Source of the DNA: a virus
Taxonomy: Duplodnaviria; Caudoviricetes
IMG/VR virus record: IMGVR_UViG_3300049856_000052
Span: 1-52,037 of that record
Reading direction: 5' to 3' (one strand)
Length of the DNA stretch: 52,037 bases
Made by a program: the position numbers and the translations under genes. Shown here piece after piece: positions 1-52,037 of this stretch. The first letter of the stretch is position 1; each line of letters begins with the position of its first letter. Below the pieces are notes generated by a model. The model was not told the DNA's origin. It did not search any database and saw nothing but the letters and a program-made list of their open reading frames with translations.

Positions 1-115
1 AAAGCGAAGGAGGTTTGGAGAGTGCAGAGTTTAGAAAGCTGTGGCAAGATAGTGAAGACATTAAAAACCGTAATGGTAATATGCCGCCGAAGGGTCCAGA
101 TAAGAAGTTCCAAGC
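1..115 (+). repeat. 115-bp exact direct repeat, copy 1 (copy 2 at 49786-49900)
   Basis: Direct base-by-base comparison; the copies diverge after ...aagttccaagc. Confidence 0.97.
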
Positions 116-3062
116 CGTTGATGACCAAACACAAACTCCAGCATTTAAGGAGTGGTTTGGAGATAGTAAAGTAGTGGATAAGGAAGGGAAGCCTTTGAAG
201 GTTTATCATGGAACAGACGCGGATTTTACTAAGTTTATTCAAGCTAAAGAGGGTTCTGTTGGTAAAGGTATTTACGTATCTCCAAGTTCTGAAATAGCTT
301 CTTCATATGCTTTTGAATCTGCTAATGCTGAAAAAAGAAACCAAGGTTCTAATGTTAAAGCTTTATACGTAAGTATAAAAAATCCAATTGAAGTCTCATT
401 AAAAGATTTTAATAATCCCGCAGAAGGAGTTCTTATTAAGCTTGGTTATACAAAAGAAAAGGCTAACGCTATTGCCGAAAAAGCTTTAGAAACTAAAGGA
501 AATATAACCAATGAAATTCAAGCTAAAGCTATAGCTGCTGGGTTTGATGGAATTCATATTTTAGAGAAAGATGGAAGTCTTTTACAAGCTGTTGCCTTCA
601 AGCCAACACAAGTCAAATCCGCCACAGGTAACTCTGGTGAATTCAACCCAAAAAATCCAGACATTAGATTCCAAGATGACTCCGAAGACCCTAATGCTCT
701 TCCATTCTTGCTCCCTTCTCGTTATGACAAAGTCGCTCGCTTAGGAACTACTGGAAAAGAAGTAGCTGCTAATCTCCAGAAGTTTAATTCAGAAGCTTCC
801 ACGTTAGAAGGTAAATACGGGAATAAGATTGTAGCGCATTTGAATGGATATGATAAGGATGAAATTGCGAACGCCTATAAATTCCGGCACGCAATTAGCA
901 ATGGAATCGAACCTACTAATACTCTCACTGCAAACGAGCAGAAACTAAAGAGTGCCCTCGATGCTGAATTCAAAGTTGTTGGTGAAGACATCATAGCTTC
1001 TGGTCTTGAGATTAAAGATTCAGATGACTTCCGCAAGATGCAATTGAAACCAGAAGGTTATCAACCTAACATCATTTCGCAGAAAGTTCTTCATGCTTGG
1101 CAAGAAAATACTGTTGATGCTCCCAAGTATGACAAGCTTTATGTAGATTACATGGAGAAGAAAGGCTTAACTAAAGAGGCCGCAGCTAAGCAACTTCAAG
1201 AGTATAAAGAAGCGGTGGGTAATGCTGGCGTTACTCCTGACATTAGGTTCAATGCTGTTCGCAAAGCAGAAGGTAAAGGTCTTCCGTTTGAACTTGTAGA
1301 ACAGAATCCAGCATTAGCTTTCAAACGCTATGGGCGACGCGCAGCAAGTGATGTAGCTTTTCATAAGTTCTTACAAGCAGACCCTCGCATGATGAAGGCT
1401 CTTGGTTTGAAGGACCAATATGGAAAAGCATTTACTGATTTGGACGCTGCTACTCAAGACAAAGCTAAGGATGTAACTTGGATTGGAAACTCTACTGAAG
1501 TTAAGAGCGCACTCAGAACGGTGTTCGGAGTTGATGCTCCAATGAATCAACGTGGTAACGCTTTTCTTCGAGCAGTTGTTAATAGTGTGATTGGAACTCC
1601 CGCAGCTATTCGTAACATAGCAGGATTAGGAACTTCCTATGCTGGTTATTATGGAGTAACTCCTAGCACTCTGAAAGAAGCTTTTGTGAAGAGAGCGGAG
1701 AGAGCTTCCAGAGCATTTGAATCTAATGCTGTGAGGACGTCCTTCAAAGACATTGATGCAGCAGGAATTATTGAAGGTAATCCTGATAGGTTTGTAGAAC
1801 TAGCTGACAAGTATTCTGCTTTCATGAGAAAGTGGTCAGGACGAGATTTGTCAGATAAGTTTGAAGGAGAACTTAGTTATTCTCTTGGGGAGACACTAGC
1901 TACTCAATGGTTTGCACAAGCTAAAGCTGGCGACATTAAAGCTCGTCGAATGTTGAATCGCTTTGGAGGAAACATTAAAGGTGGAGTGAAAGAAAAGTTT
2001 AATGTTAAAACAGAAGTCTCTGGAGATGATGTAATGCGCGTCGCCAAGAATTTTGTAGACGCTACTCGTGGTAGCTACTCTGCTGGTGGATTACCTTCTA
2101 GTGCTATCGAAGGCGGCGCGGCTCCAATGCTGTCCCTCGCTCGCTGGTCTATTGAGAAGTTCGATACCTTCCAAAAGGATATTGTTCGCCCAATTACTGA
2201 ACATGGAGATTGGGCACCTCTTGCTAAAACTACTTTTGCTGGACTTCTTACTGGAGCAGCCATTGAGAAACTTACTGAATTCCTAAGCCACAAGAAAAGC
2301 CCTGATGCTACTCTCGAAGAGACTTGGGCTAATCCTGATGTTGAGAACATTACCGCAAAAGTTATTGGCCTCCTACAGTTAGGAGGTTATGGTGGCATGT
2401 TGTCAGAGATGGCGAAAGCAGGAGTAGCAACGCTTCAAGGCAAAGACTTGAAGTTTAATAATCCTGTTTCGATGCCGGCACTCAGCTTAGTTGAGAGTAT
2501 ATTTCAGAATACCGCTCATGGATTAGAAGCCGCGCAACAAGGAGAAGAGAAGTTGGAAATTCTCTCTCACTTTATTGGGGACATTCTCACTGCTACTTAT
2601 CAGAACTATCGCTATGGAAAGAATTGGGTGGATAAAGAAGGAACGGAGAGGAAGGGGAAGTTTCGAGACATTCGAGTCTACAACGAACTTAATCATGAAC
2701 CAGCACAAGGTGGTTCAGATAGCAATCCTTATTTAGGATTTGCTGCTCGTGACTTCAAACGTGCATCGAGTTTAGAAGATGCCGCCTCTAAGCTCCCTCG
2801 GGCATTAGAGACGGCAGTGAAGAAGGCTAAGGGGAATTATGGGGAGTTAGCGAGTAATGTTGAGGGATTGAGGAGAAACTCATATCAAACGTTTCCTAGT
2901 GACCCAATGGAAGCAGCTAAGTATTATCAATACTTAATTAAAACTATCGGGGTTGACAAGGCTAACATGAGATATGCTGATTACTTAAAGCAAAACAAAG
3001 TAAATCAGATAAAGAATACTATGGTTCCTAAGTTAAAGAAACCATATTCTAATCGAGACTAA
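3..3062 (+). CDS. Polyvalent/internal virion protein, C-terminal part (open at left edge): ADP-ribosyltransferase-like domain followed by a long helical C-terminal region
   Basis: Frame is open from base 3. FKEWFGDSKVVD..G.PL.VYHGT, GIYVS, Y..IKNP, GFDGI and QVKSATGN.G.F match the ART domain of polyvalent proteins. Bases 1-115 are identical to 49786-49900 inside the giant ORF. Confidence 0.8.
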   Translation, partial: SEGGLESAEFRKLWQDSEDIKNRNGNMPPKGPDKKFQAVDDQTQTPAFKEWFGDSKVVDKEGKPLKVYHGTDADFTKFIQAKEGSVGKGIYVSPSSEIASSYAFESANAEKRNQGSNVKALYVSIKNPIEVSLKDFNNPAEGVLIKLGYTKEKANAIAEKALETKGNITNEIQAKAIAAGFDGIHILEKDGSLLQAVAFKPTQVKSATGNSGEFNPKNPDIRFQDDSEDPNALPFLLPSRYDKVARLGTTGKEVAANLQKFNSEASTLEGKYGNKIVAHLNGYDKDEIANAYKFRHAISNGIEPTNTLTANEQKLKSALDAEFKVVGEDIIASGLEIKDSDDFRKMQLKPEGYQPNIISQKVLHAWQENTVDAPKYDKLYVDYMEKKGLTKEAAAKQLQEYKEAVGNAGVTPDIRFNAVRKAEGKGLPFELVEQNPALAFKRYGRRAASDVAFHKFLQADPRMMKALGLKDQYGKAFTDLDAATQDKAKDVTWIGNSTEVKSALRTVFGVDAPMNQRGNAFLRAVVNSVIGTPAAIRNIAGLGTSYAGYYGVTPSTLKEAFVKRAERASRAFESNAVRTSFKDIDAAGIIEGNPDRFVELADKYSAFMRKWSGRDLSDKFEGELSYSLGETLATQWFAQAKAGDIKARRMLNRFGGNIKGGVKEKFNVKTEVSGDDVMRVAKNFVDATRGSYSAGGLPSSAIEGGAAPMLSLARWSIEKFDTFQKDIVRPITEHGDWAPLAKTTFAGLLTGAAIEKLTEFLSHKKSPDATLEETWANPDVENITAKVIGLLQLGGYGGMLSEMAKAGVATLQGKDLKFNNPVSMPALSLVESIFQNTAHGLEAAQQGEEKLEILSHFIGDILTATYQNYRYGKNWVDKEGTERKGKFRDIRVYNELNHEPAQGGSDSNPYLGFAARDFKRASSLEDAASKLPRALETAVKKAKGNYGELASNVEGLRRNSYQTFPSDPMEAAKYYQYLIKTIGVDKANMRYADYLKQNKVNQIKNTMVPKLKKPYSNRD

Positions 3063-3537: not shown

Positions 3538-3757
3538 AAATAGTAGAGTTATTAACAATCTTGAATTCAATTACAGTGATGTTAGGGAATCTATCAGCAA
3601 GAGCTTTCACAAACTCTTCTTCAGGAAGTTCTGGATTCTGAATAAAGATAGCGTAGTTTTCGATGTCGAAACTTTCGTTGTTGTTAGTGCTTGTGAATGT
3701 AATAACACAATCGAACTCACGGAACTCACTGTAAATTTTCTTTAATGTTGCGTTCAT
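3527..3757 (-). CDS. Hypothetical protein
   Basis: ATGA overlap with the upstream gene; fills the operon. Confidence 0.6.
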   Translation of the reverse strand: MNATLKKIYSEFREFDCVITFTSTNNNESFDIENYAIFIQNPELPEEEFVKALADRFPNITVIEFKIVNNSTIYER

Positions 3758-5094: not shown

Positions 5095-6071
5095 AGTATA
5101 ATCTCCTTCATCCCATCTGGATTATTTTGTTCATCCCACTTTCCCCAATTCTTTCCAATGCTCACTTCTGTCTTCATCTGAAAGTGTTCTCCACTAGAGG
5201 ACACAAGTTTGACGCTCATAATATCTGACAGCGTCTTAGCTGCTTCTAGGGATTCTGCTTCGGAAGATTGTATCAACACTGAATCATGTTTGTTGTTCAA
5301 AACATCCCATTGTTTATTGTTAAGTTCTACAAACATTTGCATGTCTGAAAATCCATTAGCTCCAATAACTCCCACTGTTGATTGCGGAACCCAAGCTACT
5401 CCTTCTCTGATAATTTTGTCTGTGATATGAGAACCAAAGTGCATAGGAAATCCATAAAGATTTCTTAGTGTTCTTGTGCTACGAATAGTCTCTTCTGTTT
5501 TCTTTTGCCACTCTTTAATTTCTGGGAAGAGAGCATGATAAATTCCTTCAAAGAATTCTGACTGAGCTAGGCTTAGAGCTACTTTTCCTTCTGTCTCTTT
5601 AAGAACATCAAACCTAAACGATGCCGCCGTCTTGCAATAGTTAAATGAGTGGCAAGTCTTTTTACCAATGAAGTATCTCTCTTGAGAATTCTTGATTATC
5701 TTGCTGAGTTTCTTCCACTCAGGGTGAATAGCTAACTCAGGTATCGGGAGTGAACAAAGGTTCGCTATGTCATAAGGCTGTTCTTTTTTCCACTCGGCGG
5801 CGAACAGATTCATAGCTACAAAAGTATGAGGCTTAATCCCATTCTGAAATAGACTCCTGAATCTTCCTTCTCTACATTCCCAAGCAACAATTAGTGCTTC
5901 TGCTCCCGCACAATCCACTTGAATAAAGACTTTGTCGTCGTCAGGAATATAGATTTTGCAGATGTCATCAGAAGGATTCTGAAGGTTAGAACCAATACTA
6001 CCAATTAACATTCCAGACTTGTTTCTGAACGTTTTAGTTCCACCGGGACTCCAATGACAGGTGTTTCTCAT
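5091..6071 (-). CDS. polA: Family A DNA polymerase, palm/fingers subunit of a split gene
   Basis: NLQN, motif A (VDCAGAE), motif B (RYFIGKKTCHSFNY) and motif C (KHDSVL). ATG at 6071 overlaps the upstream TGA (ATGA). Confidence 0.9.
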   Translation of the reverse strand: MRNTCHWSPGGTKTFRNKSGMLIGSIGSNLQNPSDDICKIYIPDDDKVFIQVDCAGAEALIVAWECREGRFRSLFQNGIKPHTFVAMNLFAAEWKKEQPYDIANLCSLPIPELAIHPEWKKLSKIIKNSQERYFIGKKTCHSFNYCKTAASFRFDVLKETEGKVALSLAQSEFFEGIYHALFPEIKEWQKKTEETIRSTRTLRNLYGFPMHFGSHITDKIIREGVAWVPQSTVGVIGANGFSDMQMFVELNNKQWDVLNNKHDSVLIQSSEAESLEAAKTLSDIMSVKLVSSSGEHFQMKTEVSIGKNWGKWDEQNNPDGMKEIIL

Positions 6072-7564
6072 ATTGTTTTCCAAGGGGTAAACCCTAAACT
6101 ACCTGTTTCTTTTTTACGTTGCCTGTATTTAATGCAGAAATCTATCGCGACATTGAACGGAAACTTCTGCTTTAGTTTAAGCAATTCTATTTCCCCGAGA
6201 GAAGGTTCTTCTGTCTTCTTACTTCTTCCTACGATTGGATAGTTAAGTGCATCATGGAAATACCTAACGCATGACTTAGAAGATGTAGCAAGCAATTCCA
6301 TTTCAGGACCAACTAAGTAGTTCAACGCTCTTTGATAACCATTCATCAACTTATCGTTATCAGCAATCATCTTCTGCCGCTTACTCTCATCGAACTTCAT
6401 ACCAAGTAATGTGTTCAGTAGAAATGGATAGATACTTCTATTGCTCTGGTCGATAGACTCTCGCAATCCTTTAATATCATCCGCATAACTAAGCTGCGCC
6501 GCGCGTATCCATTTCATGGCTGCGACATCTTTAGCATTGTAGGACCATAGTTGTTTCTCTTGATGTAAATTCTGCGGCTCAAAGATTCCTTCATCTTTAT
6601 GAAATGGTTCCCAGATAGAAGGCCAAATACTTAGACAATGCCCTAAACTTTTTTCCGCTTCTGGGAAGCAGCGATGTTGACTAAGCATTGTATCATAGAT
6701 ATTCCATGTAAAGGGGAGTGAGTATTTAGTTGAGAGAACATACAAGTCGAACATACTATTATGAACAACAGTCGTATTATTCATGATAGCTTTTGCTAAT
6801 GCTCTGAAAAGCCTGAATGTTGAATCTCCGTAAGCTAGTGCATAATCATATCGTAAGACTGGAACAGTATAAACAGGAGTATCCCCCTCAAAACTAAAAC
6901 CAAAGCATAACATATTTTGGTTGGAATCGGTTTCAATATCCAAGTAGAAATTACTACCTTTAGTTTCTTCAAGGACTTTGAGAACAGCGTGCAGTTGCGG
7001 GTAGATGTCAATATCATATACATGGGACTTCGTCCTGTTAGCATCTTCCATTCCATACAATATCTTCTTAACATCTTTTGCTAAGAAGAACCTAAAGTTA
7101 GCGCGGCGCGTTTTACCGTGTCTCTTCTTAGTATTAACTTCATCTTCCCCTCCACCTTCCCTCTCTTCATCCTTAGAGGTAAGAGCAGAGTTAAACTTAG
7201 ATTCATAGTCTTGTGGGTCGATAGCATCTTGAGGGCTATAAGAACAGATAACAGGAACTCCAAACTTATTTCTTAGAGGAGTTCCTCTTAGCTCATTGAT
7301 TGAATACTCTGAGTAACCATCTGCCCACTCATGCAATGACCGCTCCCCCAACAAGAGAATAGCTTTTGTGTTTGGCAAAAGACCTGCTCCTAAAGTGTCA
7401 GCAGTTCTAATGTCACAACGCCATCGACTTGTTAGAGAAGCTAAACAATCTTGATTAAAGAATACTCCTGCGTATCCAGACAAGAGCGTAGTTAAGTCTT
7501 GCCTACTTGGTTGCGACAAGACTATGGTAAGCCCGCAGTATTCTTTAGAAGGAAGATGTCTCAT
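6068..7564 (-). CDS. Family A DNA polymerase, N-terminal subunit: degenerate UDG-like domain, 3'-5' exonuclease and thumb
   Basis: Exo I DIETD, Exo II HNSMFD, YDTML, Exo III YNAKD and thumb GMKFD. The N-terminus has family-4 UDG-like elements (ILLLG, LRG, ICSYSP). Confidence 0.85.
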   Translation of the reverse strand: MRHLPSKEYCGLTIVLSQPSRQDLTTLLSGYAGVFFNQDCLASLTSRWRCDIRTADTLGAGLLPNTKAILLLGERSLHEWADGYSEYSINELRGTPLRNKFGVPVICSYSPQDAIDPQDYESKFNSALTSKDEEREGGGEDEVNTKKRHGKTRRANFRFFLAKDVKKILYGMEDANRTKSHVYDIDIYPQLHAVLKVLEETKGSNFYLDIETDSNQNMLCFGFSFEGDTPVYTVPVLRYDYALAYGDSTFRLFRALAKAIMNNTTVVHNSMFDLYVLSTKYSLPFTWNIYDTMLSQHRCFPEAEKSLGHCLSIWPSIWEPFHKDEGIFEPQNLHQEKQLWSYNAKDVAAMKWIRAAQLSYADDIKGLRESIDQSNRSIYPFLLNTLLGMKFDESKRQKMIADNDKLMNGYQRALNYLVGPEMELLATSSKSCVRYFHDALNYPIVGRSKKTEEPSLGEIELLKLKQKFPFNVAIDFCIKYRQRKKETGSLGFTPWKTI

Positions 7565-7985: not shown

Positions 7986-8116
7986 GTTTCCTCCAGTCGT
8001 TGATTGTTGTGTTTGCAGAAAAGGAAATTGTAAGCTAATCCTGAGAAAGCTTTGTAAGCTAACCATAAAAGAGTTGCGACAGCACCAATCATGAATCCTG
8101 TTAGTAAATTTTTCAT
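7919..8116 (-). CDS. Small membrane-anchored protein with CxH...CxxC
   Basis: Hydrophobic N-terminus; ATGA coupling to the upstream gene. Confidence 0.55.
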   Translation of the reverse strand: MKNLLTGFMIGAVATLLWLAYKAFSGLAYNFLFCKHNNQRLEETWHDGTLKISCKTCGKVWFRPL

Positions 8117-8670
8117 AAGTATTTTTTAATAGTAGCTTTCTGACCAGATAAAACTATGGCTTCTGAATAATAACCTTGCACTATTGAATTTGCACCAACT
8201 CTAGTATTGTCTGGTAGAATCGTGCCGCCGAGTATTACTGAGTTTCTTCCTATAAAGCAATTCTTTCCTATCGAAATAATTCCTCTATACTCAAGAGGTG
8301 TTGAGCACGGTGACGTATCTTCTTTGAAGGTGTGTTCAGTATTTTGAATGACAACATTGTCAGCAATCAATGTTCCTTCTTCAATTACTAAGAGTCCATA
8401 AGAACTAATTCTACAAAATTCTCCAACACCTACCTTAGAGTTTATTACAATACTTCCTTCTTTGTTCACCCCTAAGTGTGTATTCTTGCCTATAATTACG
8501 TCTGAACCTATGTTAATACCCTTCAAATAGCGAAGCGGCCATGAAGAAGTTCTTGCTATGTAAGTTCTTTTTCCGACACTAAGACCTAGAAATTTTAGCA
8601 CAATTATTTTATCGAGAGTCAAAACTCTTCGAATAAATGTTTGGTGCTTAGCAAGAAAAGAAAGTATCAT
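8113..8670 (-). CDS. Hexapeptide-repeat (left-handed beta-helix) O-acyltransferase
   Basis: IG.DV.IG, IGKNCFIGRNSVILGG and VGANSIV repeats, plus the His of NTEH. Start uncertain (8670 or 8715). Confidence 0.85.
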   Translation of the reverse strand: MILSFLAKHQTFIRRVLTLDKIIVLKFLGLSVGKRTYIARTSSWPLRYLKGINIGSDVIIGKNTHLGVNKEGSIVINSKVGVGEFCRISSYGLLVIEEGTLIADNVVIQNTEHTFKEDTSPCSTPLEYRGIISIGKNCFIGRNSVILGGTILPDNTRVGANSIVQGYYSEAIVLSGQKATIKKYL

Positions 8671-8724
8671 AGAAATTGTCCCGATATTATATTGGCCGTC
8701 GGGACCAGCAGACAAATACTAAAC

Positions 8725-15008: not shown

Positions 15009-15872
15009 CTATTTTATTTTTCCAAGTATTTTATATCGCAACACTTGAGCTTGTAACGAACGAACATTACCGGAGAGGGAGAAGAACTCTTTATAGATGT
15101 CGTCTGCTTTGTCATCAGGTTTTGTTTTAGCAAAGTTCATGAACTCCGTTACTAACCCTTCTCCTCCCAGTGAATCAACAATGTCTTCGATATCACATAT
15201 TCTTTGATCTAACCCTTTAGTCTTTAGCTCGAATGTATTGAGTCGATAGAGAACATCTTCCCTAAAGTTTATGGTAGAGAGTTCCTTGTTCGTCGCCGCC
15301 ACTACCCTACAATTGATTGGCTCTTCGATGTCACTACCAATAGGGCACACTACCTTCTCTTGTAGAACTCTTAGCAATTTAGCTTGCATACTCTGTGGCA
15401 TATCCCCAATCTCATCTAGGAATATAGTCCCACCAAACGCAGCCCTGAACTTACCTACCCTTTCAGTGATTGCTCCAGTGAAAGCTCCTTTAGCATGACC
15501 AAAGAGTTCTGATTCAATCAATTCATCCGGGAGTCCTGTGCAATTAACTGCTACGAACTTACCTTTTCTGCTACCATGCAATGCTCTAGCTAGCAATTCC
15601 TTTCCTGTCCCACTTGGTCCTTGGATAAGAACTGGATACTCATACCCTTGCAAGAGTTGAGCTTGCTCTTTTACTAGCTGAGTCTCTGGGTCATTGGTAA
15701 TATAGGAGTCCAATACCTTCTCGGCAGCACAAGAGAAGAATGGGTAATAACCCTTAACCCCTTGTGTTACTGCGATAGCTCTTGCTGATACTTCTTGCTG
15801 TTCTGCTAGTGTTTTCTGTCCATTAGTCCAAAGTGTCCTAATGAAGTCTGACGCATTTTTAATTGGTTGCAT
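15009..15872 (-). CDS. sigma54-dependent activator (bacterial enhancer-binding protein AAA+ domain) without HTH
   Basis: [61 protein letters not shown] and GNVRSL; the protein ends about 13 aa later. Confidence 0.95.
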
Positions 15873-19729: not shown

Positions 19730-19909
19730 TTAGTCTTGCAACTTAATGCAAGAGCTAAACTTAGAATTCTTGGGGAACCATTCCCCAATGTTAGAAGAAT
19801 CATTCTTGTCATGCACTACTAAATAGTGTGTTGATGATTCTTTGATGATGGTTCCTGTGAAGGATTGTGATTTACCATCAGGACGACTAATAAGGATTGA
19901 GGCTTTCAT
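19730..19909 (-). CDS. 59-aa hypothetical protein (not in ORF track)
   Basis: [12 protein letters not shown]...CIKLQD; ATGA overlap with the ligase stop. Confidence 0.6.
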   Translation of the reverse strand: MKASILISRPDGKSQSFTGTIIKESSTHYLVVHDKNDSSNIGEWFPKNSKFSSCIKLQD

Positions 19910-20481
19910 TTTGTTTTCTTTGGTTTTACTAATAGTCGCTGACTTCCAAAGTCACGAGTCTTGATTTTTACCATTCGCCCATCAGGATGATGCCAGACGA
20001 TGCCTTCGATATCTTTGCCACTTAGATACAACTTGAGTTCATCATAAGAGCGTGGCGCATCATTCAGAACTTCGCACCCGTGAGCAATAAGTGTGTGTGT
20101 TGGTATGCCTTCTGGATTGCCTTGGATTTTTGGTCCGATGAGTTCATATGTCCCATCGGGCAAGTTTCCTCCAACCACATTCCACGCCTCACGATGCCAT
20201 TGGTCACTAGAATCATCTCCGACAAGCAGCCATCCGGGGTGATGACCAGTTACAAAGTCAGGTTCTTGTGCGGCCTCAAATCCGATTGGTGGTGTCTTTC
20301 CTTTTTTTGCGTCGTATCGCTTCCACAGTTTTCCATCCCGAATCATACAACACGTTCCATCATACTTGCGTGTAGCGACACCTTCACCGGCTGCCACCCA
20401 TTCAGCACCCGGCATGATTTCATTTCTTACAAGGCGGCTGCCTTCGTAGTTTCGTTGATACAGACTAATTATTTTTTTCAT
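19906..20481 (-). CDS. ATP-dependent RNA ligase-like protein (RLIG1/DUF5565-like)
   Basis: Motif [17 protein letters not shown], motif IV EGIVW and motif V KIK. Confidence 0.75.
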
Positions 20482-23323: not shown

Positions 23324-23920
23324 TTATCCTTTCCAATTGTAGGCTTTTAGTGCTAATTCTTTTAGGGGCAGACTAGCAGCAACATAAGCAGCAACATAAG
23401 CAGCATAATAAGCAACAACATAAGCAGCATTATTAGTAGCATAATAAGCAGCATAATAAGCATTATTAGTAGCATAATAAGCAGCATAATAAGCAGTAGC
23501 AGCTTTAAGGCTTCTATCTTTTCCACTTATCCAATTATCTGCCCATGTTTGCCATTGTTCATCTTTATAAACTTCTTTTGCGCAAATAATTCCAAAATAT
23601 ATTTTCTGTAAGTCTGTATATTCTGGAAGTTCTATTTTTCGAAGAGTTGTCAATTTTAGACATCCAAATTTCAGGTTATAGTTACTGATAATGTTACTGC
23701 CATCTGCTATTGCTTCCCATAGAATTGGAGATTTGAATTGAGCATGAGTTGGATTCAAAAGGACTGCCAAATACTTGTCATCATAAAAATGAAGACAAGT
23801 ATTTGAGCAAAGAGCTATTGTTTCATCTTCTTTCAATTGAATCTCATTTGTTATCCCTTCACCCCACTGCATACCATTAAAGGATTGTCCTTTTTCATCT
23901 GTTAGTTTGAAGCATTTCAT
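23324..23920 (-). CDS. Hypothetical phage protein with Ala/Tyr low-complexity repeats
   Basis: KLTD...QWGEG...LCS..CLHFY N-terminal domain; (AAYY)n tandem repeats at about 23380-23500. Confidence 0.7.
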   Translation of the reverse strand: MKCFKLTDEKGQSFNGMQWGEGITNEIQLKEDETIALCSNTCLHFYDDKYLAVLLNPTHAQFKSPILWEAIADGSNIISNYNLKFGCLKLTTLRKIELPEYTDLQKIYFGIICAKEVYKDEQWQTWADNWISGKDRSLKAATAYYAAYYATNNAYYAAYYATNNAAYVVAYYAAYVAAYVAASLPLKELALKAYNWKG

Positions 23921-24122
23921 AATCGAAGATAGGTTTTGAATTTTGTGGACAGCTTCCAACTATCAAATAAAAGTTCTCTTGTTGGCTAAATGCTAGGCAC
24001 ACTTTTGTGCTTAGTTTGTAAATGAAGTGAGGTCGTTGGTTCCTATTTTCCTATAAAGAGGAAAATTAGCTCAACAGTTAGGGACATACAGTTTATTTCA
24101 CTGTCTTACCCTCTCACTAAAT

Positions 24123-32024: not shown

Positions 32025-33308
32025 ATGCCAAATCAAATTGACCTTCCCAGAGCAGCTAGTCTCTGGACTGAAGTTGAAAAAGACCTCTACAATCAGTTGC
32101 CTATCTATCTTGCCAAGCGGCAAGTTGAATACATCAAAGAATGGGATTTGTGGACTAAACTCCTCAAGCCACAAAAATGGTCAGCGAACATGGGTAACAC
32201 TATGCGTGGTGTTAACAAAGTTCCTGCTCCTATTCTGCGCGGCCAAGCTCTTCCTAATACTATCCTTCAGCTTCCCAAGAAGGATATTGTTGAAGTTCGT
32301 GAAACTCGTGAAGATGTTCAGTTGTATCGCCAAGACTTCGACTCTAACGTGTTTCAGTTTTTGCCTTCTTTCCAAGACTTCCTCACTGACCATATTGATT
32401 CTCATATTGAAGCAATCAGTCAGAAGATTGTTACCTACAAAGATCTGTTCTATCGAACAGCAATCTTTCACGGTGCCCCTTACATTTGGGTGTGTTCTCC
32501 TAATGACGGCGCGGTTGAACTTCGTAGTTCTCCTTATTGGGGTTCTCCTGCTGTTTCTCTCGCTAAGTCTCAGAGCTATCTCCAGAGTATTATTGCCAAG
32601 GTTGGCGATACTTTGACTCTTGAGAACATTAAGAAACTTGGCACAGTGATGTGGAGTGACCTTAATGTTAAGCCCTATTCTGGTGATGTTACTCCAGATG
32701 GTGCTGATGGTAAGGGTCTTCGCCAAAAGTATTGTCTTGTTACTTCTACGGAAGTTTGGGATAGCTTCACTGATACGGGTTCTTACCTTCTCGGTAATCG
32801 TAAGTTGGACCTCGATGTTGTGACTGGTCCTTTCACTGGTTCGTTGTTTGGTCGTTGGACTACGATGTTTGAGCGATATGAAATGCGTATTGCTGCTGAC
32901 GGAACTATTCCTGCTCCTGAAACTACTGAGGAACAAACCACTGCTTATGATAAGGGTGATACTGTTCCTAATCCTGCTTACGTGAACGCTCCATTTGCTG
33001 TTGCGTTTGCTGTTGGTATGGATGCTTACAAAGCAATTACTGTTGGGCCGCCGCCTTCTAAGTTTGCTGATGGTGGAAGTTCTATGACTATGCGTGATTT
33101 TAATGGCATGGACTGGAACGGTAAGGTTATTCCTACTCGCAATGTTTTGGTTCCTAGCTTGAACCAGAATAACGCTGAAGTCTTGGATACCAACAAGCGT
33201 GGTGAGTATCTCCAACTCGTCTCTGACGCAGTTATGGGTATTCTTCCTAATCGTCGTCGTAACATTATTCCGATTATCTATCGTCGTGAACGTGTTTCGA
33301 CTACCTAA
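32025..33308 (+). CDS. Probable major capsid protein
   Basis: 427 aa after the scaffold, strongly biased codons, own promoter. Called from position and size only. Confidence 0.75.
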   Translation: MPNQIDLPRAASLWTEVEKDLYNQLPIYLAKRQVEYIKEWDLWTKLLKPQKWSANMGNTMRGVNKVPAPILRGQALPNTILQLPKKDIVEVRETREDVQLYRQDFDSNVFQFLPSFQDFLTDHIDSHIEAISQKIVTYKDLFYRTAIFHGAPYIWVCSPNDGAVELRSSPYWGSPAVSLAKSQSYLQSIIAKVGDTLTLENIKKLGTVMWSDLNVKPYSGDVTPDGADGKGLRQKYCLVTSTEVWDSFTDTGSYLLGNRKLDLDVVTGPFTGSLFGRWTTMFERYEMRIAADGTIPAPETTEEQTTAYDKGDTVPNPAYVNAPFAVAFAVGMDAYKAITVGPPPSKFADGGSSMTMRDFNGMDWNGKVIPTRNVLVPSLNQNNAEVLDTNKRGEYLQLVSDAVMGILPNRRRNIIPIIYRRERVSTT

Positions 33309-37349: not shown

Positions 37350-39602
37350 ATGAGATTTCTTCTCTTTTATCTTCTTTCAGCAATAGGTTTGGCGGCGCAA
37401 GCTACTAAACCTGTTCAAGTTTTTTCTACTAATGGTCTACTTCAATGGCCTTCTAATTTCTTTAGGACTAATATTTTAGCAGCAGGAGGAACTTCTCTCA
37501 GCTTTGATTCTTTTGGGCGGATGACCATATCAAGTATTTCAGGGAGTGGAACTAACACTCTTTTCCAAACAAATGGAGTTAACATAGCTTCTGCTGGCAC
37601 ACTTAATTTTGTTTCAGGATTGACAGGTTATGTAAGTGGTGTTAATGTTTTCATAGGAAATAGTGTAGCTGGAGGTGGTGATGTTACTACTGCTCAATTG
37701 TTAGTGGTTAGTAACCAAATGATTGCAAGTAGCAATTATTCTTTTACGGCAATAGGAGTGACTTCTAATAAGTTTCAGACTGATGTTAGCAATTTGCAAG
37801 GGGCAACAAATGGTTTGGCGGCACAAATCTTAGTTGTTAGTAATCAGCTTAATGTCGCAAGTAATAAGTTTCAAACTGACATAGTAAATCTACAGGGAGC
37901 TACTAATGGACTCGCCGCGCAAATCTTAGTTGTTAGTAACCAATTAAATGTTGCGAGCAATAAATTTAACACTGATGTTGGAAATCTGCAAGGAGCTACA
38001 AATGGATTACACACTAGGGTTGGTAATCTCGAAGGAGCTACCAATGGTCTTGATGCTTTGGTAAAGACTAAGCAACAAGGGTCTGCTCATTTGACTAATC
38101 TTTCGCTTAATCCTTACGTTCAATTTACAAACATAAATGCTTTCCAAGCTTCTAATAATACAATAACAACTTGGCTAGGAACTGGAGTATTAACTAACAT
38201 TGTTAATAATTCTACATCATGGCCAGCAGGACAATTTGGTTGGGTTGGAGTTTCTAATAATGGAGATGTCAGGATTAGGACCGTGAGTCAGGGAGCAAAT
38301 ATAACAATAACTGACCAAGGAACTAATTTAAGTTTTGCAGCAGCAGGTGGTGGAGCAACTCCCGGAGGTAATAGTGGGGCAATTCAATTTAATGAAACAG
38401 GAGTTTTTGCGGGGACTAATGAATTTAGATGGGATAGGACTAATGGTAATTTGTATGTAGTTGCTACATCAGCACCAAAAATATCTGTAGAAAAAGCGGG
38501 AGCTACGGGAGGCACTAATTCGATAACTCAAACAGGGATGCAGCATTATGACCCAGGTGCTGACCCTCAATTTGTTTTCTTTACTTCTTCTGGGCCTTCT
38601 GGTGGCGCTGCTGGTGGTTTTACTATTTACACAAATCGAGTAGTTCCTACTGCTACTAATCATCTTGATTTAGGCAGTTTCATCTTTCCTTGGCGAAATG
38701 CCTATGCTGAATCAGTGCAAGCAAATGATTACATAAGTCTAGGAACTAACTTAAACAGTTTGACTAAAATCAAAGCTGCAAACTTCAATTGGAAACCTAC
38801 TAATACTTTTGTATTTACTGTAACAAACCCAACAGCAGGACAAGTCTTAAAGTTTAATTCTGTTTCTTATGCTGCTGGTGTTGCAACAGTAATCCTAACT
38901 AATGATGTGGATTCAACAGGTGGCTTGGCTACCAATGCTAACCAATTTGGAGCAAGTGTAACACTCACACTAAAAGACTATCCTTACACCACAAACATGA
39001 CAGACTTCGCGACGAGTCGTGTCAACAGTATCATAGTTTCAAATAACTCTTATGTGTTTGTAGGAGCGGTTTCTAACTTATTTACCACTAATGCAACAAC
39101 AAGGCTTGGAAGTTCCACAAGTAATTCTTGGATAGGTGGCCGAGTTTATGTTGACATAAACAAAAGAACAAACTTACCTTCTGCTACAATTTGGACAAAT
39201 CTTGCAGTATTCACAGTTCCTGCTCATTCATTAACAAACAATGGTGATACCATAACGGCTGATTGGGTTGGTAATATGTTAAGTGGGACTAATAAGTTTT
39301 TTGTGGGCTATGGTTCTATCACTAATGTGTTGGATTTAACTGGTTTAACTAATGGCCATCCTTTGGCGAGTTGGAATCTTAAACTTCGTATTATTAGAAC
39401 AGCAAGCACAGAACAACGAGTATTTGCAGAATGGCAAACATCTCCCGGATTTGGTATTCAGTATTTCTATACTAATCGAGTGGTTACATTAACAGAAACT
39501 AATGGTATTGACACTTTAATTCGATTGCAGTGTTCAGCTAATAAGTTTGGTAGTATCACTAATGATTTCATGTCTGTAACATTTGAACCGGGGCCTCGTT
39601 AA
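37350..39602 (+). CDS. Fibre-like protein with signal peptide and 32-aa coiled-coil repeats
   Basis: MRFLLFYLLSAIGLAAQA; repeats of SNKFQTD..NLQGATNGLAAQILVVSNQLNVA at about 37760-38010; PGG..G.IQFN..G.F.G and DLGS...PW fibre motifs. Confidence 0.75.
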   Translation: MRFLLFYLLSAIGLAAQATKPVQVFSTNGLLQWPSNFFRTNILAAGGTSLSFDSFGRMTISSISGSGTNTLFQTNGVNIASAGTLNFVSGLTGYVSGVNVFIGNSVAGGGDVTTAQLLVVSNQMIASSNYSFTAIGVTSNKFQTDVSNLQGATNGLAAQILVVSNQLNVASNKFQTDIVNLQGATNGLAAQILVVSNQLNVASNKFNTDVGNLQGATNGLHTRVGNLEGATNGLDALVKTKQQGSAHLTNLSLNPYVQFTNINAFQASNNTITTWLGTGVLTNIVNNSTSWPAGQFGWVGVSNNGDVRIRTVSQGANITITDQGTNLSFAAAGGGATPGGNSGAIQFNETGVFAGTNEFRWDRTNGNLYVVATSAPKISVEKAGATGGTNSITQTGMQHYDPGADPQFVFFTSSGPSGGAAGGFTIYTNRVVPTATNHLDLGSFIFPWRNAYAESVQANDYISLGTNLNSLTKIKAANFNWKPTNTFVFTVTNPTAGQVLKFNSVSYAAGVATVILTNDVDSTGGLATNANQFGASVTLTLKDYPYTTNMTDFATSRVNSIIVSNNSYVFVGAVSNLFTTNATTRLGSSTSNSWIGGRVYVDINKRTNLPSATIWTNLAVFTVPAHSLTNNGDTITADWVGNMLSGTNKFFVGYGSITNVLDLTGLTNGHPLASWNLKLRIIRTASTEQRVFAEWQTSPGFGIQYFYTNRVVTLTETNGIDTLIRLQCSANKFGSITNDFMSVTFEPGPR

Positions 39603-47378: not shown

Positions 47379-50300
47379 ATGCCACTTACTCTTACTGATG
47401 ACCTAAAGAAGCGACTCTATGCTCGGCATGGTTATGCTGACACTGATTTCGATTTAGAAGCAACTGGTGAAGATACTTACAAGTTCGTTCCTAAGATGGC
47501 TCCTGCGGTTCAACCTGCTGAACCTGCTGAGTCAGTGGCGCCGCTTGCTTCTGCTAATATCCCTAAACCTCCAAGTGGATTAGAGAGCTTTAGTCGTGCT
47601 GCTGCTACTTCTGCTTTTCCAACGGCGGCGAGTTTAGCAACAGTTGCTGGAACGGCAGCAATGCTAACACCAGAACCCACTATTTCTAAATTGCTTGGTC
47701 TTGGGTTGCTGGGAATTGGGTCTTCGTTGGCAGCAAGTAAGTTGCAAGAGGAAGTAGTTCCCGAAAGTATTAAACAAAGTTTGTTTACTCGACCAGAAGA
47801 TATTAAAGAACATCCTATTGCAAGTGCTGCTGGTGGGTTTGTTCCCAATGCTTTAGCATTTAAGCCAAGTTTCAGTGATATTAAGACTCTCGCACAAGGA
47901 GCAAGAAATCTAAGCTGGGCGGCGCAAGGAGCAAAGGGTGCTTTGAACCCTTCTCAACAAGCAGCACTGATTAACGCTGGAGCTAACATTGTTCCTGCTG
48001 CTGGCATGGAAGCTTATGCTCTTGGCTCAGGACAGAAAGAGTTTAATCCTCTTGAATCAGCAATCAACGTTCTTCCGGGAGCATTGTTTACGAGGCCTAC
48101 TGCGCTTGGACAACGACTCGGCTTTCATTCTCCAGAAGTTAAGCCTGATGTAGAGAAAGCTCCTGTAGAAGAATCTACTCCAAATCAAGCTCGATTTACT
48201 ATAGATGCGAATGGAGTTACTCGTGATGCCAATGGAAATCCGATTCAATCTGCTAATATGACAGGAGTTACTGGAGAAGGAGTTACGATAACTCCAACCG
48301 GAGAGACGATTTTAGAAGGAACTGTTCCAAAGACTAAAGATGAAGTAATCAAATACAGAGACAAGGACGGAAAGATTAAGGAATATGTCCTTCAAAAAGG
48401 AGAACCAATTAGAAAGAATCCTTATGAAGCGATGTCTGGAAACACAGACGACACTATTGTAGGAACACATCGTCCTACTAAAAGTGCAGTAGATTCAGCA
48501 GTAGCGATGGAGTCTGCTGATATTCAAGCTAAGAAGAAAGTTGACTATGAAACATCACTCCGAGAAAAAGCTAAGCAAGATGCAGAAGAAGTTTATCATA
48601 AAGCGTTTGAGGAAGCTACTAAAGGTAAACTACTAGGATCAAAGGTCACTGCTCCAGAAGTTCGTCCAGAACCTCTAGCTGTTACTGAGACTGGCAAAGA
48701 GATTATGCCAGATTATACTGGCGTTGAAGTTGATTCTCAAATCCAAAACGCTACTAAGCCCAAGACTGATGCTGAGTGGGCACAAGAACAGTTTGATGCG
48801 ATGGAAGATAAAAGGAAGTATCAACCAGATACTCCTGAGAATCCTAATGAAGTTAAAGACAAAGCTAAATTCTTAGCTGACTTTGAAGCAGAGGCTGCGC
48901 GACGCGGATTGAAGGTTCGTTACGATGATAAGATTACCGTCAATGGTAAGTCAAAGCGTGGATACTTCGACCCTAAAACAAGGGAAGTTGTTATCTCGAA
49001 ATCGAGGGCTACAGAAGATACATTCTCCCACGAAGTTGGGCATGGTTATGTAGATGATTTGCTTGTAAGCAGCAACACCAAGGACCATGAACCAGTGTTG
49101 AGAGGGCTTGAGTTTGCTGATGCTCAAGGTAGAAAGTTTAAGACTAAGGCTGATTGGGAAGCATTGACTCCAGAAGAGCGTGCATCTATTGATGAACGTT
49201 TTGTTCAGCAGCTTGGCGAAGAAGGTGCTAAGCAGAGGAAGGCTGAACTATATGGGAATCGCAGACAGAAGTTTACTAAGTGGGTTGAGAATGTTGGCTC
49301 GAACATTAAGACTAAACTTGGAGTGGGAGATTCAGTAGATAATAGTCGAGGCTTGGCAGTGAGTCAGCGGCACGACTTGAGGAATCTAAAGCCGAGTGGT
49401 GAAGGGGCTATTACTCCAGTTGTTAAGGCGCAAGGCGATAATGAAGGGCAAAAGAAAGCTCCTTATTCTGGTCAAGAAATAAATAATTTTATCAAAGGTA
49501 GGCATCTTCAGTTAGAGAATGCAAGACTGTATTTAGATAGAGATGAGCCTCGCTATGATGCAGCAGAAAGAGCAAAACAAAATCTATTAAAAGACGCTCC
49601 TAAAGAGTTAAAATCTTTAATAGAAGATACTGATTTTTCGAAGATATCTTCAATTAAATCTCTTGAGGCTAAATTATATGAAGAGATTCCAAAGTTATTT
49701 GAACCTCGTATAAAGTTCCAAGGCGACCAGAAGTCTGATTACGAACAATATCAAGAAGTCCAAGCTAAATTGCGAGAAGTGTTGAAAAGCGAAGGAGGTT
49801 TGGAGAGTGCAGAGTTTAGAAAGCTGTGGCAAGATAGTGAAGACATTAAAAACCGTAATGGTAATATGCCGCCGAAGGGTCCAGATAAGAAGTTCCAAGC
49901 GGACAACCAACCTGAGCGAGATACTTTTGAGTTGTCAATTAACAAAGAGCTTAGAACTCCTAAGCCTTTTGGCATAAGTCTTGATAAAGAAGGTAAATTT
50001 GCTGGTAATACTATTGCTGATAAATTGCCTTCAAGTATTCCTAAACTCGAACTTGATATATTGAGAACTGCTGGCATTGAAAAGTTTCTTAGATATGGTC
50101 GCCATACTCCTGCTGAAATTGAGAGTTGGATTAAAGAACATGGTCCTCGTGCTGGGACTCATGTCTATGGCATGGAAGGGAAAGTGAGCGAGGCGAAGAA
50201 GGAGTATGATAAGATGACGCATGAGTGGCGCGATACGGAACTAGCTGGTAGTGAGCAAGAAAAGCTAGACCAATACAGAAAAGGACAACTAACTCGTAGT

Positions 50301-52037
50301 GCGTATGAGAACTGGCTAAAAGACCAACAGGTAATGCCAGATGCAAAACCCGAAACGCTGGCTAAGTATATGGCTAAAGCTGATAGATACACACAGCTAC
50401 GAAAGGAAGTAGATGCAGAGCCTAAACAAGTAACTGCAACCTCCGCCTACGAAACCGTCTCCGCTCTCGACATTCACCAACCAATGCCTGAGTGGACGAC
50501 AAGTAAGAGTGGAAAGAATGTGCAGAGAGTGGATGTGGTGGTGCCTGCTGATGTGGCTAAATATGAGGCTGATGTAAATAGGCCCAAGCGTGGGACTATA
50601 GACGAGACTGGCAAAGTAAACTTCGAGAAGGTAAAAGAAAAAGACCCTGTGCTATGGGAACAAGACAACCTCCACGAAAACCTCCCCAACACTCTCGGCT
50701 GGGCGATGATACAGTATAAGACTGGACCGAAGGGTGAGAAGATAGCAGTGATAGCAGAGGCACAGAGTAGGTGGGGGCAGCAGAGACGCGCACTGATAAA
50801 TAAGTATGAAGTAAAACCATATGAGCAACAGTATGCTCACCTAGAAGGTGAAATACCTAAAGAAAGTAATACCTACTATGGTGTATGGGACAAAGAGGCT
50901 AAACGCTGGATAAGCCCACTGGAAAATGGTAGTGTGGCTATGGAGAAACAAACATGGCTAACGAAATCTGCCGCACAAAGAGCCATAGAAGAGTGGAGTG
51001 ACCAAGCGATAAAAGACCACCCCCTCCTCCGCGACTACAACCATCTCATCCTCAAAGCCGCTATCGAACAAGCGAGGAAAGAAGGTGCTACGCATATCGT
51101 GGTGAGTGATGCAGAGACTGCGATGATGACGGAGGGGCATGATGCACATGCAAAACACCCAGTAATAAAAGAAATACCCACTAACTATTCTGCTAGGGAT
51201 AAAGTTCAGCAGATGCCAACTGATAGAGGCAACCTATACCATGAATACCCTGCCAGTAAGTATGAAATGGAGCATGATAACACACATGACAAATGGATAA
51301 TACGAGATAAACAGCAACCAAAAGTAGCAGACCAAGAACCCGGTATGCGACTCAACTACGACACCATCCTCCCGAAGATAGTCGAAGAACTCACAGGGAG
51401 TAAGGGTGAGAGGGTGAGTTTAGGAGAGCATAAGAATGCGATGGAGAAAGTGCAAGTAGAATCTGGGCCGACTGTAACAGGTAACAATAGAATGGAACCC
51501 CGCACCAACCTCATCTTCAAAAACCCAGACGGCACACCAAAGACTGACGTTTCTGGGGTGATGTATCCACTAGAAACAGTTGCCAATAAACTCAAGTCTG
51601 AACCTTTTTCGCTTACCGGTAAGAAATTCCAAGCCGACTCCGAAGACCCTAATACTTCTACACTAGCTTCCGACATCCAAGGAACTACGCCAGAGCAAAT
51701 TCGTAAGAACATGGATGTTTCTGTTAACTCACCGGAGTTTAAAAAGTCCGGCGTGATTAAACAAAACTTAAACGAACTCAAAACTAAACTACCTATATTT
51801 GGAGCTGACTTAGATAAGTTAGCTACTCGTGGTGGTGAGAGCGGTAAGTATATTGCACCAGCACTTAAAGAAGCTTTAGTTAAGCGTGATGAATTTGAAG
51901 GCAAATGGTTGAATCCTTCTATTGAAAACATTAAGAGTCTTTCTTTTAACGAACAAAAACTTTTAATTGACACACTAAGGGCCGAACGGCGTCAAAATAA
52001 AAGCTTAAAAGATACATTACCTAGTGTAGCTCTTGAG
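47379..52037 (+). CDS. Giant polyvalent/internal virion protein (at least 1553 aa, runs off the right edge; missing from ORF track)
   Basis: Hand translation from ATG 47379 (MPLTLTDDLKKR...) has no stop. It contains hydrophobic N-terminal helices, a zincin HEVGH motif (49029-49043), an E.QS.W module and repeated KFQ linkers. Confidence 0.9.
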   Translation, partial: MPLTLTDDLKKRLYARHGYADTDFDLEATGEDTYKFVPKMAPAVQPAEPAESVAPLASANIPKPPSGLESFSRAAATSAFPTAASLATVAGTAAMLTPEPTISKLLGLGLLGIGSSLAASKLQEEVVPESIKQSLFTRPEDIKEHPIASAAGGFVPNALAFKPSFSDIKTLAQGARNLSWAAQGAKGALNPSQQAALINAGANIVPAAGMEAYALGSGQKEFNPLESAINVLPGALFTRPTALGQRLGFHSPEVKPDVEKAPVEESTPNQARFTIDANGVTRDANGNPIQSANMTGVTGEGVTITPTGETILEGTVPKTKDEVIKYRDKDGKIKEYVLQKGEPIRKNPYEAMSGNTDDTIVGTHRPTKSAVDSAVAMESADIQAKKKVDYETSLREKAKQDAEEVYHKAFEEATKGKLLGSKVTAPEVRPEPLAVTETGKEIMPDYTGVEVDSQIQNATKPKTDAEWAQEQFDAMEDKRKYQPDTPENPNEVKDKAKFLADFEAEAARRGLKVRYDDKITVNGKSKRGYFDPKTREVVISKSRATEDTFSHEVGHGYVDDLLVSSNTKDHEPVLRGLEFADAQGRKFKTKADWEALTPEERASIDERFVQQLGEEGAKQRKAELYGNRRQKFTKWVENVGSNIKTKLGVGDSVDNSRGLAVSQRHDLRNLKPSGEGAITPVVKAQGDNEGQKKAPYSGQEINNFIKGRHLQLENARLYLDRDEPRYDAAERAKQNLLKDAPKELKSLIEDTDFSKISSIKSLEAKLYEEIPKLFEPRIKFQGDQKSDYEQYQEVQAKLREVLKSEGGLESAEFRKLWQDSEDIKNRNGNMPPKGPDKKFQADNQPERDTFELSINKELRTPKPFGISLDKEGKFAGNTIADKLPSSIPKLELDILRTAGIEKFLRYGRHTPAEIESWIKEHGPRAGTHVYGMEGKVSEAKKEYDKMTHEWRDTELAGSEQEKLDQYRKGQLTRSAYENWLKDQQVMPDAKPETLAKYMAKADRYTQLRKEVDAEPKQVTATSAYETVSALDIHQPMPEWTTSKSGKNVQRVDVVVPADVAKYEADVNRPKRGTIDETGKVNFEKVKEKDPVLWEQDNLHENLPNTLGWAMIQYKTGPKGEKIAVIAEAQSRWGQQRRALINKYEVKPYEQQYAHLEGEIPKESNTYYGVWDKEAKRWISPLENGSVAMEKQTWLTKSAAQRAIEEWSDQAIKDHPLLRDYNHLILKAAIEQARKEGATHIVVSDAETAMMTEGHDAHAKHPVIKEIPTNYSARDKVQQMPTDRGNLYHEYPASKYEMEHDNTHDKWIIRDKQQPKVADQEPGMRLNYDTILPKIVEELTGSKGERVSLGEHKNAMEKVQVESGPTVTGNNRMEPRTNLIFKNPDGTPKTDVSGVMYPLETVANKLKSEPFSLTGKKFQADSEDPNTSTLASDIQGTTPEQIRKNMDVSVNSPEFKKSGVIKQNLNELKTKLPIFGADLDKLATRGGESGKYIAPALKEALVKRDEFEGKWLNPSIENIKSLSFNEQKLLIDTLRAERRQNKSLKDTLPSVALE
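49786..49900 (+). repeat. 115-bp exact direct repeat, copy 2
   Basis: Identical to bases 1-115 and in the same reading frame. Confidence 0.97.

Follow-up and report, generated by a model that had tools for sequence, protein, structure and literature searches.

Candidate processing sites and in-frame recombination joints at the module boundaries of a giant polyvalent-type protein from an uncultured phage

RNA-virus polyproteins are cut by their own protease, as by the picornavirus 3C protease at Q|G. Among phage head proteins, Alt and the internal proteins (IPs) of T4 are cut by gp21 and the inner-body proteins of phiKZ by gp175. The polyvalent proteins of phages and conjugative elements were defined by Iyer, Burroughs, Anand, de Souza and Aravind (2017, PMC5512222), who found zincin-like metallopeptidases (MPTases) to be their commonest hub domain and proposed, with RNA-virus polyproteins as the analogy, that the domains are released autoproteolytically, be it prior to packaging, inside the head or once injected. 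Its main text (the supplements lie outside this statement) contains neither the word 'linker' nor 'interdomain', has 'cleavage site' only in the title of a reference and gives no site motif; nor was a junction motif for polyvalent proteins found described in the literature, as far as the texts available to us reach. Another polyvalent protein, the 2811-aa gp47 of phi24B, is present in virions and was proposed to be an ejection protein (bioRxiv 10.64898/2026.04.10.717836). We analysed the complete IMG/VR virus record IMGVR_UViG_3300049856_000052 (52,037 bp, classed as linear, CheckV completeness 100), below called the window. It comes from an uncultured phage with a genome of about 50 kb, and the contig wraps around the circular genome and mixes haplotypes. 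One of its genes encodes a giant modular protein in which an embedded predicted protease and a candidate site repeated at the module boundaries are both present. The initial annotation of this DNA had suggested that these linker peptides are cleavage sites releasing separate effectors after injection and had mentioned processing by the embedded zincin as an existing proposal, which is indeed made by Iyer et al. (2017).

The giant gene is found as two open reading frames (ORFs) at the edges of the contig, both on the plus strand like all features of the window described below unless stated otherwise. The 5′ part, P0001, lies at 47379..52037 (1553 aa, open at the 3′ end, where it runs off the contig) and the 3′ part, P0002, at 3..3062 (1019 aa, 5′ end open, stop codon at 3060-3062). 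The order of modules is N-terminal hydrophobic region, zincin, small helical modules (the second of them called m), GNAT-like domain B, ADP-ribosyltransferase (ART) domain and a C-terminal domain of about 790 aa. Seven linkers are present, all exactly at the positions given by the initial annotation. Those of P0001 are KYQPD (linker 1, 48816..48830), KAQGD (linker 2, 49425..49439), the weakest copy, in which Ala replaces the aromatic residue, KFQGD (linker 3, 49713..49727), KFQAD (linker 4, 49890..49904) and again KFQAD (linker 5, 51624..51638). In P0002, KFQAV (105..119) precedes the ART cassette and RFQDD, continued by SEDPN, is found at 666..680, where a 31-nt stretch is 90% identical to 51626-51656. 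The window linkers are short, apparently disordered peptides that read K-F-Q-[AGD]-D, often followed by S-E-D-P-N. The pattern [KR][FYW]Q[AGDSP][DEV] has seven matches in the six frames of the 52-kb window, six of them in the giant gene and the seventh in a stretch of 29 codons that is not an ORF, and all four six-frame matches of [FYW]Q[AGDS]D lie within the two edge ORFs.

The position of the linkers relative to folded domains was read from two AlphaFold2 models, one of residues 760-1460 (36-row alignment, mean predicted local distance difference test score, pLDDT, 78.8) and one of residues 440-1000 (32-row alignment, mean pLDDT 76.8). The 440-1000 model has internal stretches with pLDDT below 50 at q41-47, q234-260, q336-343, q398-405 and q490-498; linkers 1 to 4, which start at q41, q244, q340 and q399, all lie inside such stretches, and four of the five stretches contain a motif. 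In the 760-1460 model, linkers 3 and 4 (q20 and q79) fall in the low stretches q1-23 and q77-86, and linker 5 starts at q657, where the score drops (q657-661; q660-701 is low). As the initial annotation had expected, all five linkers of P0001 are thus situated in or at the edge of low-confidence stretches between confidently predicted domains and are not buried inside the domains. In P0002, the Pfam envelope of the ART domain (residues 59-214) is flanked by motifs at residues 35 and 222. It is very improbable that chance or composition produced the motifs, in the sense that a long protein rich in charges and of low complexity would show a loose K/R-x-Q-x-D pattern anyway. It is true that the pattern is loose, that KAQGD deviates from it, that the motif at 105 is not independent because bases 1-115 exactly copy 49786-49900, and that shuffled giant proteins give repeated 8-mers in 7 of 74 cases. 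Nevertheless, six of the seven six-frame matches fall in the giant gene, the motifs coincide with every inter-domain gap, and the equivalent positions in relatives bear repeats of their own.

Linkers 1 and 2 bracket the zincin-like MPTase domain (48831..49424), as was claimed before. The domain is confidently folded in the model (pLDDT 90-97), HEVGH is encoded at 49029-49043, and the candidate for the third ligand, E606, at 49194-49196. H551, E552, H555 and E606 lie on helices and are invariant in an alignment of 32 sequences (the later 32-sequence alignment, A3, misaligns about the last 25 residues). The predicted domain therefore shows the gluzincin arrangement, HExxH on a helix with a downstream Glu as third ligand. 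The top rows of the Foldseek search were lethal factor, ArdC and IrrE/PprI, with a probability of up to 0.98 and a best E value of only 0.06, and the Pfam family Tox-MPTase4 was matched with E 0.0046 at 17.3 bits, under the cut-off of 25.

We propose that the linker peptides are recognised and cut by this gluzincin-type peptidase of the same protein, which would divide the chain into separate modules in the manner of a viral polyprotein. Thermolysin-like and lethal-factor-like zincins have a textbook specificity for an aromatic residue at P1′. A cut placed before the aromatic residue of the linker, which would then be P1′, is our guess. The protein would be packaged in the virion and cut in the head or after ejection, and the linker repeats would double as in-frame microhomology for the gain and loss of modules. 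Carriage in the virion is probable, the one pointer to it being the position of the gene as the last of the late block, as in the relatives. That the linkers are cleaved by a protease of some kind appears probable; that they are signals for the protein's own zincin we put at an even chance, cutting itself being something that we infer.

A search with domain B, the conserved 575-residue domain that follows linker 4, scored 7995 candidates, of which at least 283 giant proteins matched with E ≤ 0.001, and domain B also matched 446 clusters at 50% identity. The relatives are nearly all 1.8-2.7 kaa long and are encoded, where contigs are long, on contigs of 45-55 kb. At the positions equivalent to the window linkers, the relatives L005 and L006 (loci are designated L, their proteins P) have K-Y-S-E-G-[GD]-A-L-R three times and Q-F-S-E-G at the place of linker 3, and L007 has Y-[FH]-S-G-[PA]-G three times. 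These tags are as confined to the giant gene as the linkers of the window: in six frames of the 14-23 kb loci, all four matches of [FYW]SEG are in the giant ORF both in L005 and in L006, and all four of [FYWH]SG[PA] in that of L007. The tags of other relatives include SE[IT]P[ST][KR]Y, SE[QS]SPFA, ESKLKD, ESALGP, SEAADEP, ESDLP, YQPLGP, SRPEG and more, and these private tags are usually preceded by a common [KR][FY][SQ]. Judging from these sequences, K-F-Q of the window is one lineage's Q version of a wider code consisting of [KR][FY][SQ] and a private motif.

The privacy of the tags was quantified with the linkers on the two sides of domain B, which could be delimited at both ends in 123 of 199 proteins (104 after dereplication). 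The best match of the linker before domain B was the linker after domain B of the same protein in 20 of the 104 proteins (about one expected by chance), and the own linker was among the top three in 30; the own-linker score exceeded the 99th percentile of between-protein scores in 21 (Mann-Whitney p 2e-12). Counting exact 4-mers proved too crude as a detector of private motifs, 122 of 177 proteins having some 4-mer in at least three copies, many of them trivial. In nine of the ten ART-bearing relatives, the recipient's own tag stands on either side of the conserved ART cassette (TPEFKKWFG to NPDIR[FY]), for example SEGDALR, SE[QS]SPFA, SE[IT]PSKY, YQPLGP or SRPEG; P0025 is a protein of the L005 type with the ART and one extra copy of the linker. 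Because related proteins carry differing tags around the same ART module, they amount to a natural specificity experiment. A general version of the proposal would hold that throughout this family of uncultured phages (at least 283 proteins) the zincin of each lineage reads its own tag after the common [KR][FY][S/Q] and frees the modules, the tags serving as in-frame joints; we advance it tentatively, at somewhat less than an even chance.

The type of linker goes with the presence of the peptidase domain. A jackhmmer profile built from the window zincin found the domain in 74 of the 199 relatives. Among the 75 aligned rows (74 matches and the query), 62 have HExxH, 11 the six-residue variant HExxxH, which was described also by Iyer et al. 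(2017), and two are truncated. Among the 123 proteins with both boundaries of domain B, 64 have the zincin domain and a further three an HExxH upstream; the remaining 56 lack both. Directly after domain B, [KR][FYW][SQA] was found in 55 of the 67 zincin-bearing proteins vs 4 of the 56 zincin-less ones (Fisher p 5e-18, uncorrected for phylogeny), and in a FastTree tree of domain B the motif and the zincin each change at least 21-22 times. All ten ART-bearing relatives are also zincin-bearing. The zincin-less proteins have boundary motifs of the types Y-S-G-[IV]-P and E-[TG]-G-[AS]-[IL]…P, and FGKDK after domain B; the protein of L007 (27-6350, P0005), for instance, is without an HExxH domain and carries Y-[FH]-S-G-[PA]-G…LPED. 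Since such zincin-less relatives have repeated boundary motifs, the zincin cannot be the universal reader, and therefore either another factor reads their linkers or the role of these linkers is other than cleavage.

One role other than cleavage would be that of docking tags, i.e. short linear motifs to which a partner specific to the phage binds (the C-terminal domain, the portal, the inside of the capsid or a chaperone, for instance) and which would organise or unfold an intact chain for packaging and ejection. The motifs of the zincin-less relatives would fit this, the conservation of the peptides combined with their lineage-private variation would suit any co-evolving reader, protease or not, and some MPTase-bearing proteins (N4 vRNAP, ArdC and TraC1) are delivered uncut (Iyer et al. 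2017). We nevertheless consider docking unlikely: no candidate partner was identified, the motif type follows the peptidase domain, and tags at every module boundary, including both sides of the 59-residue module m, are read more simply as separators. If another factor reads the linkers, it could be a protease acting in trans, either a phage head-maturation protease or one of the host, the built-in zincin then being an effector directed against host targets or peptidoglycan. A precedent exists in T4, whose prohead protease processes the internal proteins as well as the ART Alt, and cutting in trans would accommodate the repeated motifs of zincin-less relatives. An effector role of MPTase domains was considered by Iyer et al. 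(2017), and a role on peptidoglycan was proposed for the polyvalent peptidase of phi24B (bioRxiv 10.64898/2026.04.10.717836). The motif, however, goes with the zincin in cis and occurs in no other ORF of the window in six frames, so that no capsid or scaffold protein shares it, and a host protease would not account for motifs differing among close relatives. No protease family was recognised among the 46 other window ORFs searched against Pfam or the 23 searched against PHROGs, although these ORFs are so divergent that the absence is weak evidence. Cutting in trans thus has a low probability in our estimate, and processing by a prohead protease in particular was rejected, as the motif is confined to the giant gene and the (very divergent) other ORFs yielded no protease family. 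Cleavage by the zincin of the chain itself remains the reading which we prefer for the window lineage.

The linkers are demonstrably breakpoints of natural in-frame gain and loss of modules. Bases 1..115 are an exact copy (100% identity) of 49786-49900 and mark the point where the contig wraps around; the identity stops on the Ala codon of KFQ-A. The C-terminal 790 aa of P0002 can be aligned over their whole length with the C-terminal ends of the giant ORFs of L005 and L006 (2086 and 2119 aa), and the two edge ORFs are a single gene on a wrapped, haplotype-mixed contig. The initial annotation had correctly seen the motifs in both a giant ORF and a separate left-edge ORF but had missed that both belong to one gene. 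Haplotypes were traced by comparing 49400-52037 with the Logan contigs of one public run, in which 91% of the words sampled from the right end are present; the depths are per contig, this single run being available in the form of contigs. At the first branch point (49900/49901, in linker 4), a contig of depth 12 ends exactly at 49900 and one of depth 7.6 goes on into domain B; the contig following the branch starts 30 nt before that position. At the second (51636/51637, in linker 5), a contig of depth 10 comes from the end of domain B and passes 51636 into 13 letters that are found once in the window, at 118-130, which are the first codons of the ART cassette. The window's own continuation at 51672-52016 has a depth of about 3 vs 10-12 upstream. 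This continuation (51639..52037) represents the first part of another, diverged C-terminal domain and belongs to a low-abundance relative in which domain B leads straight into the C-terminal domain with no ART. By jackhmmer, the last 133 codons of the contig are homologous to the start of the C-terminal domain; their matches lie on residues 206-297 of P0002 and, in many relatives, immediately behind domain B or ART. Direct BLASTP of this tail gave a weak match (E 0.015).

According to these contigs and the window, three module forms co-exist in the population. In the first, domain B is followed by ART (gene of 2400 aa, genome of about 51.5 kb). The second has no domain B and its module m runs into ART, as at the left end of the contig (1822 aa, 49,785 bp); it differs by exactly 1734 nt, i.e. 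578 codons, in frame, and its m-to-ART junction was seen solely in the window itself. The third form is that of the rarer relative, with domain B running directly into the diverged C-terminal domain. The junctions m-to-B, m-to-ART and B-to-C′ are present in the contig and B-to-ART in a Logan contig, and all four junction types fall on the same stretch AAR-TTC-CAA-GC, the codons of KFQ-A. Exact-pattern scans of metagenome contigs with the stretch at the ART start and with the last 48 nt of the window returned 0 contigs each, with the window's own genome records possibly excluded. We rejected a tandem arrangement of C-terminal domains or of m modules within the gene: with a depth of about 3, the tail of the contig represents the beginning of a C-terminal domain, and domain B passes straight into ART in the depth-10 contig. 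The tail from the minor haplotype contains SPEFKK (51720-51745, residues ~1448-1456 of P0001), with which the ART cassette of relatives begins as well ([ST]PEFKKWFG) and which looks similar to the first part of module m in L005; a lost ART may have left it behind, or it may be a module-start helix common to both.

Selection on the linkers appears, from codon comparisons, to act on the peptide rather than on the DNA. The three KYSEG[GD]ALR copies of L005 differ at 7-9 of 8-11 codons for identical residues, the only residue change being G/D. In 15 repeat pairs from 12 loci, picked by residue identity from 74 scanned loci, 69 of 126 degenerate codons for identical residues are different codons. 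Such old copies held constant as peptides are evidence against the linkers being simple scars or handles of modular recombination, carried along with the cassettes and having no role as peptides. That explanation would account for the gain and loss of modules exactly at linker codons and for the difference between P0025 and L005, which consists of a cassette and a duplicated linker, and recombinational variability of cassettes was raised by Iyer et al. (2017). Copies within a gene, however, keep their residues yet differ at more than half of the synonymous positions, a sign of selection on the peptide that erodes the DNA homology, and the same ART cassette has recipient-specific flanks in nine of ten proteins. 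Scars without a peptide function are decidedly improbable on this evidence; the joints would be a second use of peptides which the zincin recognises.

Several observations weigh against the linkers being sites for the embedded zincin. To begin with, tblastn searches of 50,697 phage records with domain B, the C-terminal domain and a 427-aa ORF of the late block (32025-33308) matched no cultured relative. The zincin was assigned by its motif and by weak fold matches (Foldseek E ≥ 0.06, Pfam under the cut-off), and the delivery of uncut MPTase-bearing proteins noted above points in the same direction. Of the 123 relatives examined, 56 are without a detectable zincin, and some of these (L007/P0005 and, by eye, P0126, P0145 and P0099) keep repeated boundary motifs. 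When phylogeny was taken into account by seven independent pairs on supported branches, the motif differed in the same way as the zincin in 4.8 pairs on average, in the opposite way in 0.5 and not at all in 1.7; the direction is consistent but the test is underpowered (median sign-test p 0.125). A clear private match between the linkers before and after domain B is found in 20 to 30 of the 104 relatives only. In the window the downstream 'private' residues are looser than in the relatives, and one copy, KAQGD, is without the aromatic residue. The low pLDDT of the linkers may partly reflect private motifs that do not align across 32-36 rows. Of the 74 loci, 20 have repeated 8-mers, but so do 7 of 74 shuffled controls, and the pairs were chosen for amino-acid identity, so that the codon count describes old constrained copies and is no unbiased ratio of nonsynonymous to synonymous substitution (dN/dS). 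From the original suggestion that the linkers release effectors, it has held up that the motifs are specific to the gene, lie between domains, are conserved as peptides and are tied to the zincin; the placement of the ART domain has to be corrected.

Linkers 4 and 5 (49890 and 51624) were said to bracket the ART domain. It is domain B (49905..51623) that lies between them, and the ART-PolyVal ADP-ribosyltransferase domain (177..644, P0002 residues 59-214) is bracketed by the linkers at 105 and 666. This predicted ART matched Pfam PF18760 with E 2e-26 and 93.9 bits (cut-off 31.2) over profile positions 1-140 of 140. Domain B has a putative GNAT-like core with large inserts and no Pfam match; an alignment of 36 sequences shows invariant His, Glu, Asp and Ser residues. 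An atlas search with domain B gave scores of ≤ 0.86, and Foldseek against the PDB returned nothing at E ≤ 0.001 for either model (760-1460 and 440-1000). The N-terminal region (aa 1-479, 47379..48815) has moderately hydrophobic Gly/Ala-rich segments at aa 78-123, with a Kyte-Doolittle mean over 19 residues of 1.2-1.4, and its N-terminal consensus is conserved in the family alignments. The zincin is followed by a 92-residue helical module (49440..49712; helices with pLDDT 58-80), which is absent from most relatives (L005 was compared at this place), and by the two-helix module m of 59 residues (49728..49889, …KLWQDSEDIKNRNG…), whose helices q28-44 and q52-67 have pLDDT >90 and which is conserved in L005, P0006 and P0019. 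The C-terminal domain of about 790 aa (681..3059) is family-wide and is 26% identical over 787-833 columns to the C-termini of L005 and L006. Its atlas lead consists of viral hypothetical clusters only, one of them with LPD39 on 28% of the members, and neither this domain nor domain B matched an LPD family in Pfam (E ≤ 0.01). The whole is a single phage polypeptide of 1822-2400 aa with several unrelated domains, among them the hallmark ART-PolyVal and, by motif and fold, a zincin, as is characteristic of the polyvalent class. Other cassettes occur in the same chassis: P0035 has a classical GNAT (Acetyltransf_1) ahead of domain B, and P0111 contains a GHKL ATPase (HATPase_c). The domain B of L008 (8561-14923; L114 lies on the same contig) is divided between two ORFs of 735 and 1337 aa, with the conserved stretch IAEAQSRWGQ missing between them; a frameshift, an assembly error or an insertion may be the cause.

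The giant gene is the final gene of the late/structural block, which extends on the plus strand from about 26.3 kb to the right end of the window, and the gene has the same place in L005-L007. The late proteins are very divergent: Pfam searches with 20 of them detected only a lectin-like domain and a sub-threshold match to an SU10-type portal. Within the late ORF 37350-39602 (750 aa), a direct repeat of 96 nt (75% identity) is found at 37692-37961 together with related units of 45 nt, probably a repeated coiled or fibre segment. The replication block occupies the minus strand at about 3-25 kb and encodes a DUF3987/primase-like helicase, a split family-A polymerase, helicases, a PD-(D/E)XK nuclease and a kinase. 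The family-A DNA polymerase (5091-7564, minus strand) is apparently split into two overlapping ORFs of 498 and 330 aa, which match successive portions of one PHROG and Pfam profile. A minus-strand ORF of 287 aa (15009-15872) matches the Sigma-54 interaction (AAA+ activator) domain of Pfam in full (E 2.8e-55) and is apparently too short for receiver or DNA-binding domains. Ten copies of a 12-nt unit stand in tandem, with one 9-nt step, at 23354-23508 within the minus-strand ORF 23324-23959 (211 aa, weak DUF7666 match). Auxiliary genes, likewise on the minus strand, encode a MazG/PRA-PH-like pyrophosphohydrolase (3049-3570), a hexapeptide-repeat transferase (8113-8715) and a protein with an RNA ligase 1-like domain (19906-20481).

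If the zincin does cut at the linkers, any module placed between two tags would be freed as a separate effector, which would constitute a plug-and-play polyprotein system in DNA phages, and effector modules (ART, GNAT-like and others) would be exchanged in natural populations without loss of the frame. Processing of polyvalent proteins by zincins was predicted in 2017 without a defined site, and the present family supplies candidate sites at the level of residues. In the reads of one sample the same peptides mark in-frame swaps of modules, which suggests how phages vary the sets of effectors that they inject. The widespread and hitherto unannotated 575-residue domain B, putatively GNAT-like, is defined here as the core cargo of these giant proteins. 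What is new in this study are polyvalent proteins with explicit and private junction codes, together with the new, putatively GNAT-like core domain.

Like the polyproteins of RNA viruses, the giant protein is one chain with an embedded predicted protease and a short boundary site, constant in any one virus but varying from lineage to lineage. It differs from them in having a zincin instead of a chymotrypsin- or papain-like protease, in belonging to a DNA phage, in being probable virion cargo rather than a replication polyprotein and in that its cleavage is a predicted one. With the head proteins of T4 and phiKZ it would share that effectors, among them an ART, travel in the head and are released by cutting at a short consensus. 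In contrast to T4 and phiKZ, no other protein of the window contains the motif, no prohead protease was recognised and the candidate protease is part of the substrate chain. By its description, gp47 of phi24B, a short-tailed phage in whose ordered structure it is absent, is likewise a giant polyvalent protein with a metallopeptidase, but it has the different domains LPD1/5/38 and MuF-C, and in the available part of the report has neither processing nor a junction motif ascribed to it (bioRxiv 10.64898/2026.04.10.717836). The closest correspondence is to the polyvalent proteins of Iyer et al. (2017), which are also giant multi-domain chains of phages combining a zincin-like HExxH domain, ART-PolyVal and enzyme-like domains. 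Unlike the proteins as described there, the family of the window has explicit candidate sites, which are private to lineages, appear to be under selection as peptides and are live joints of recombination.

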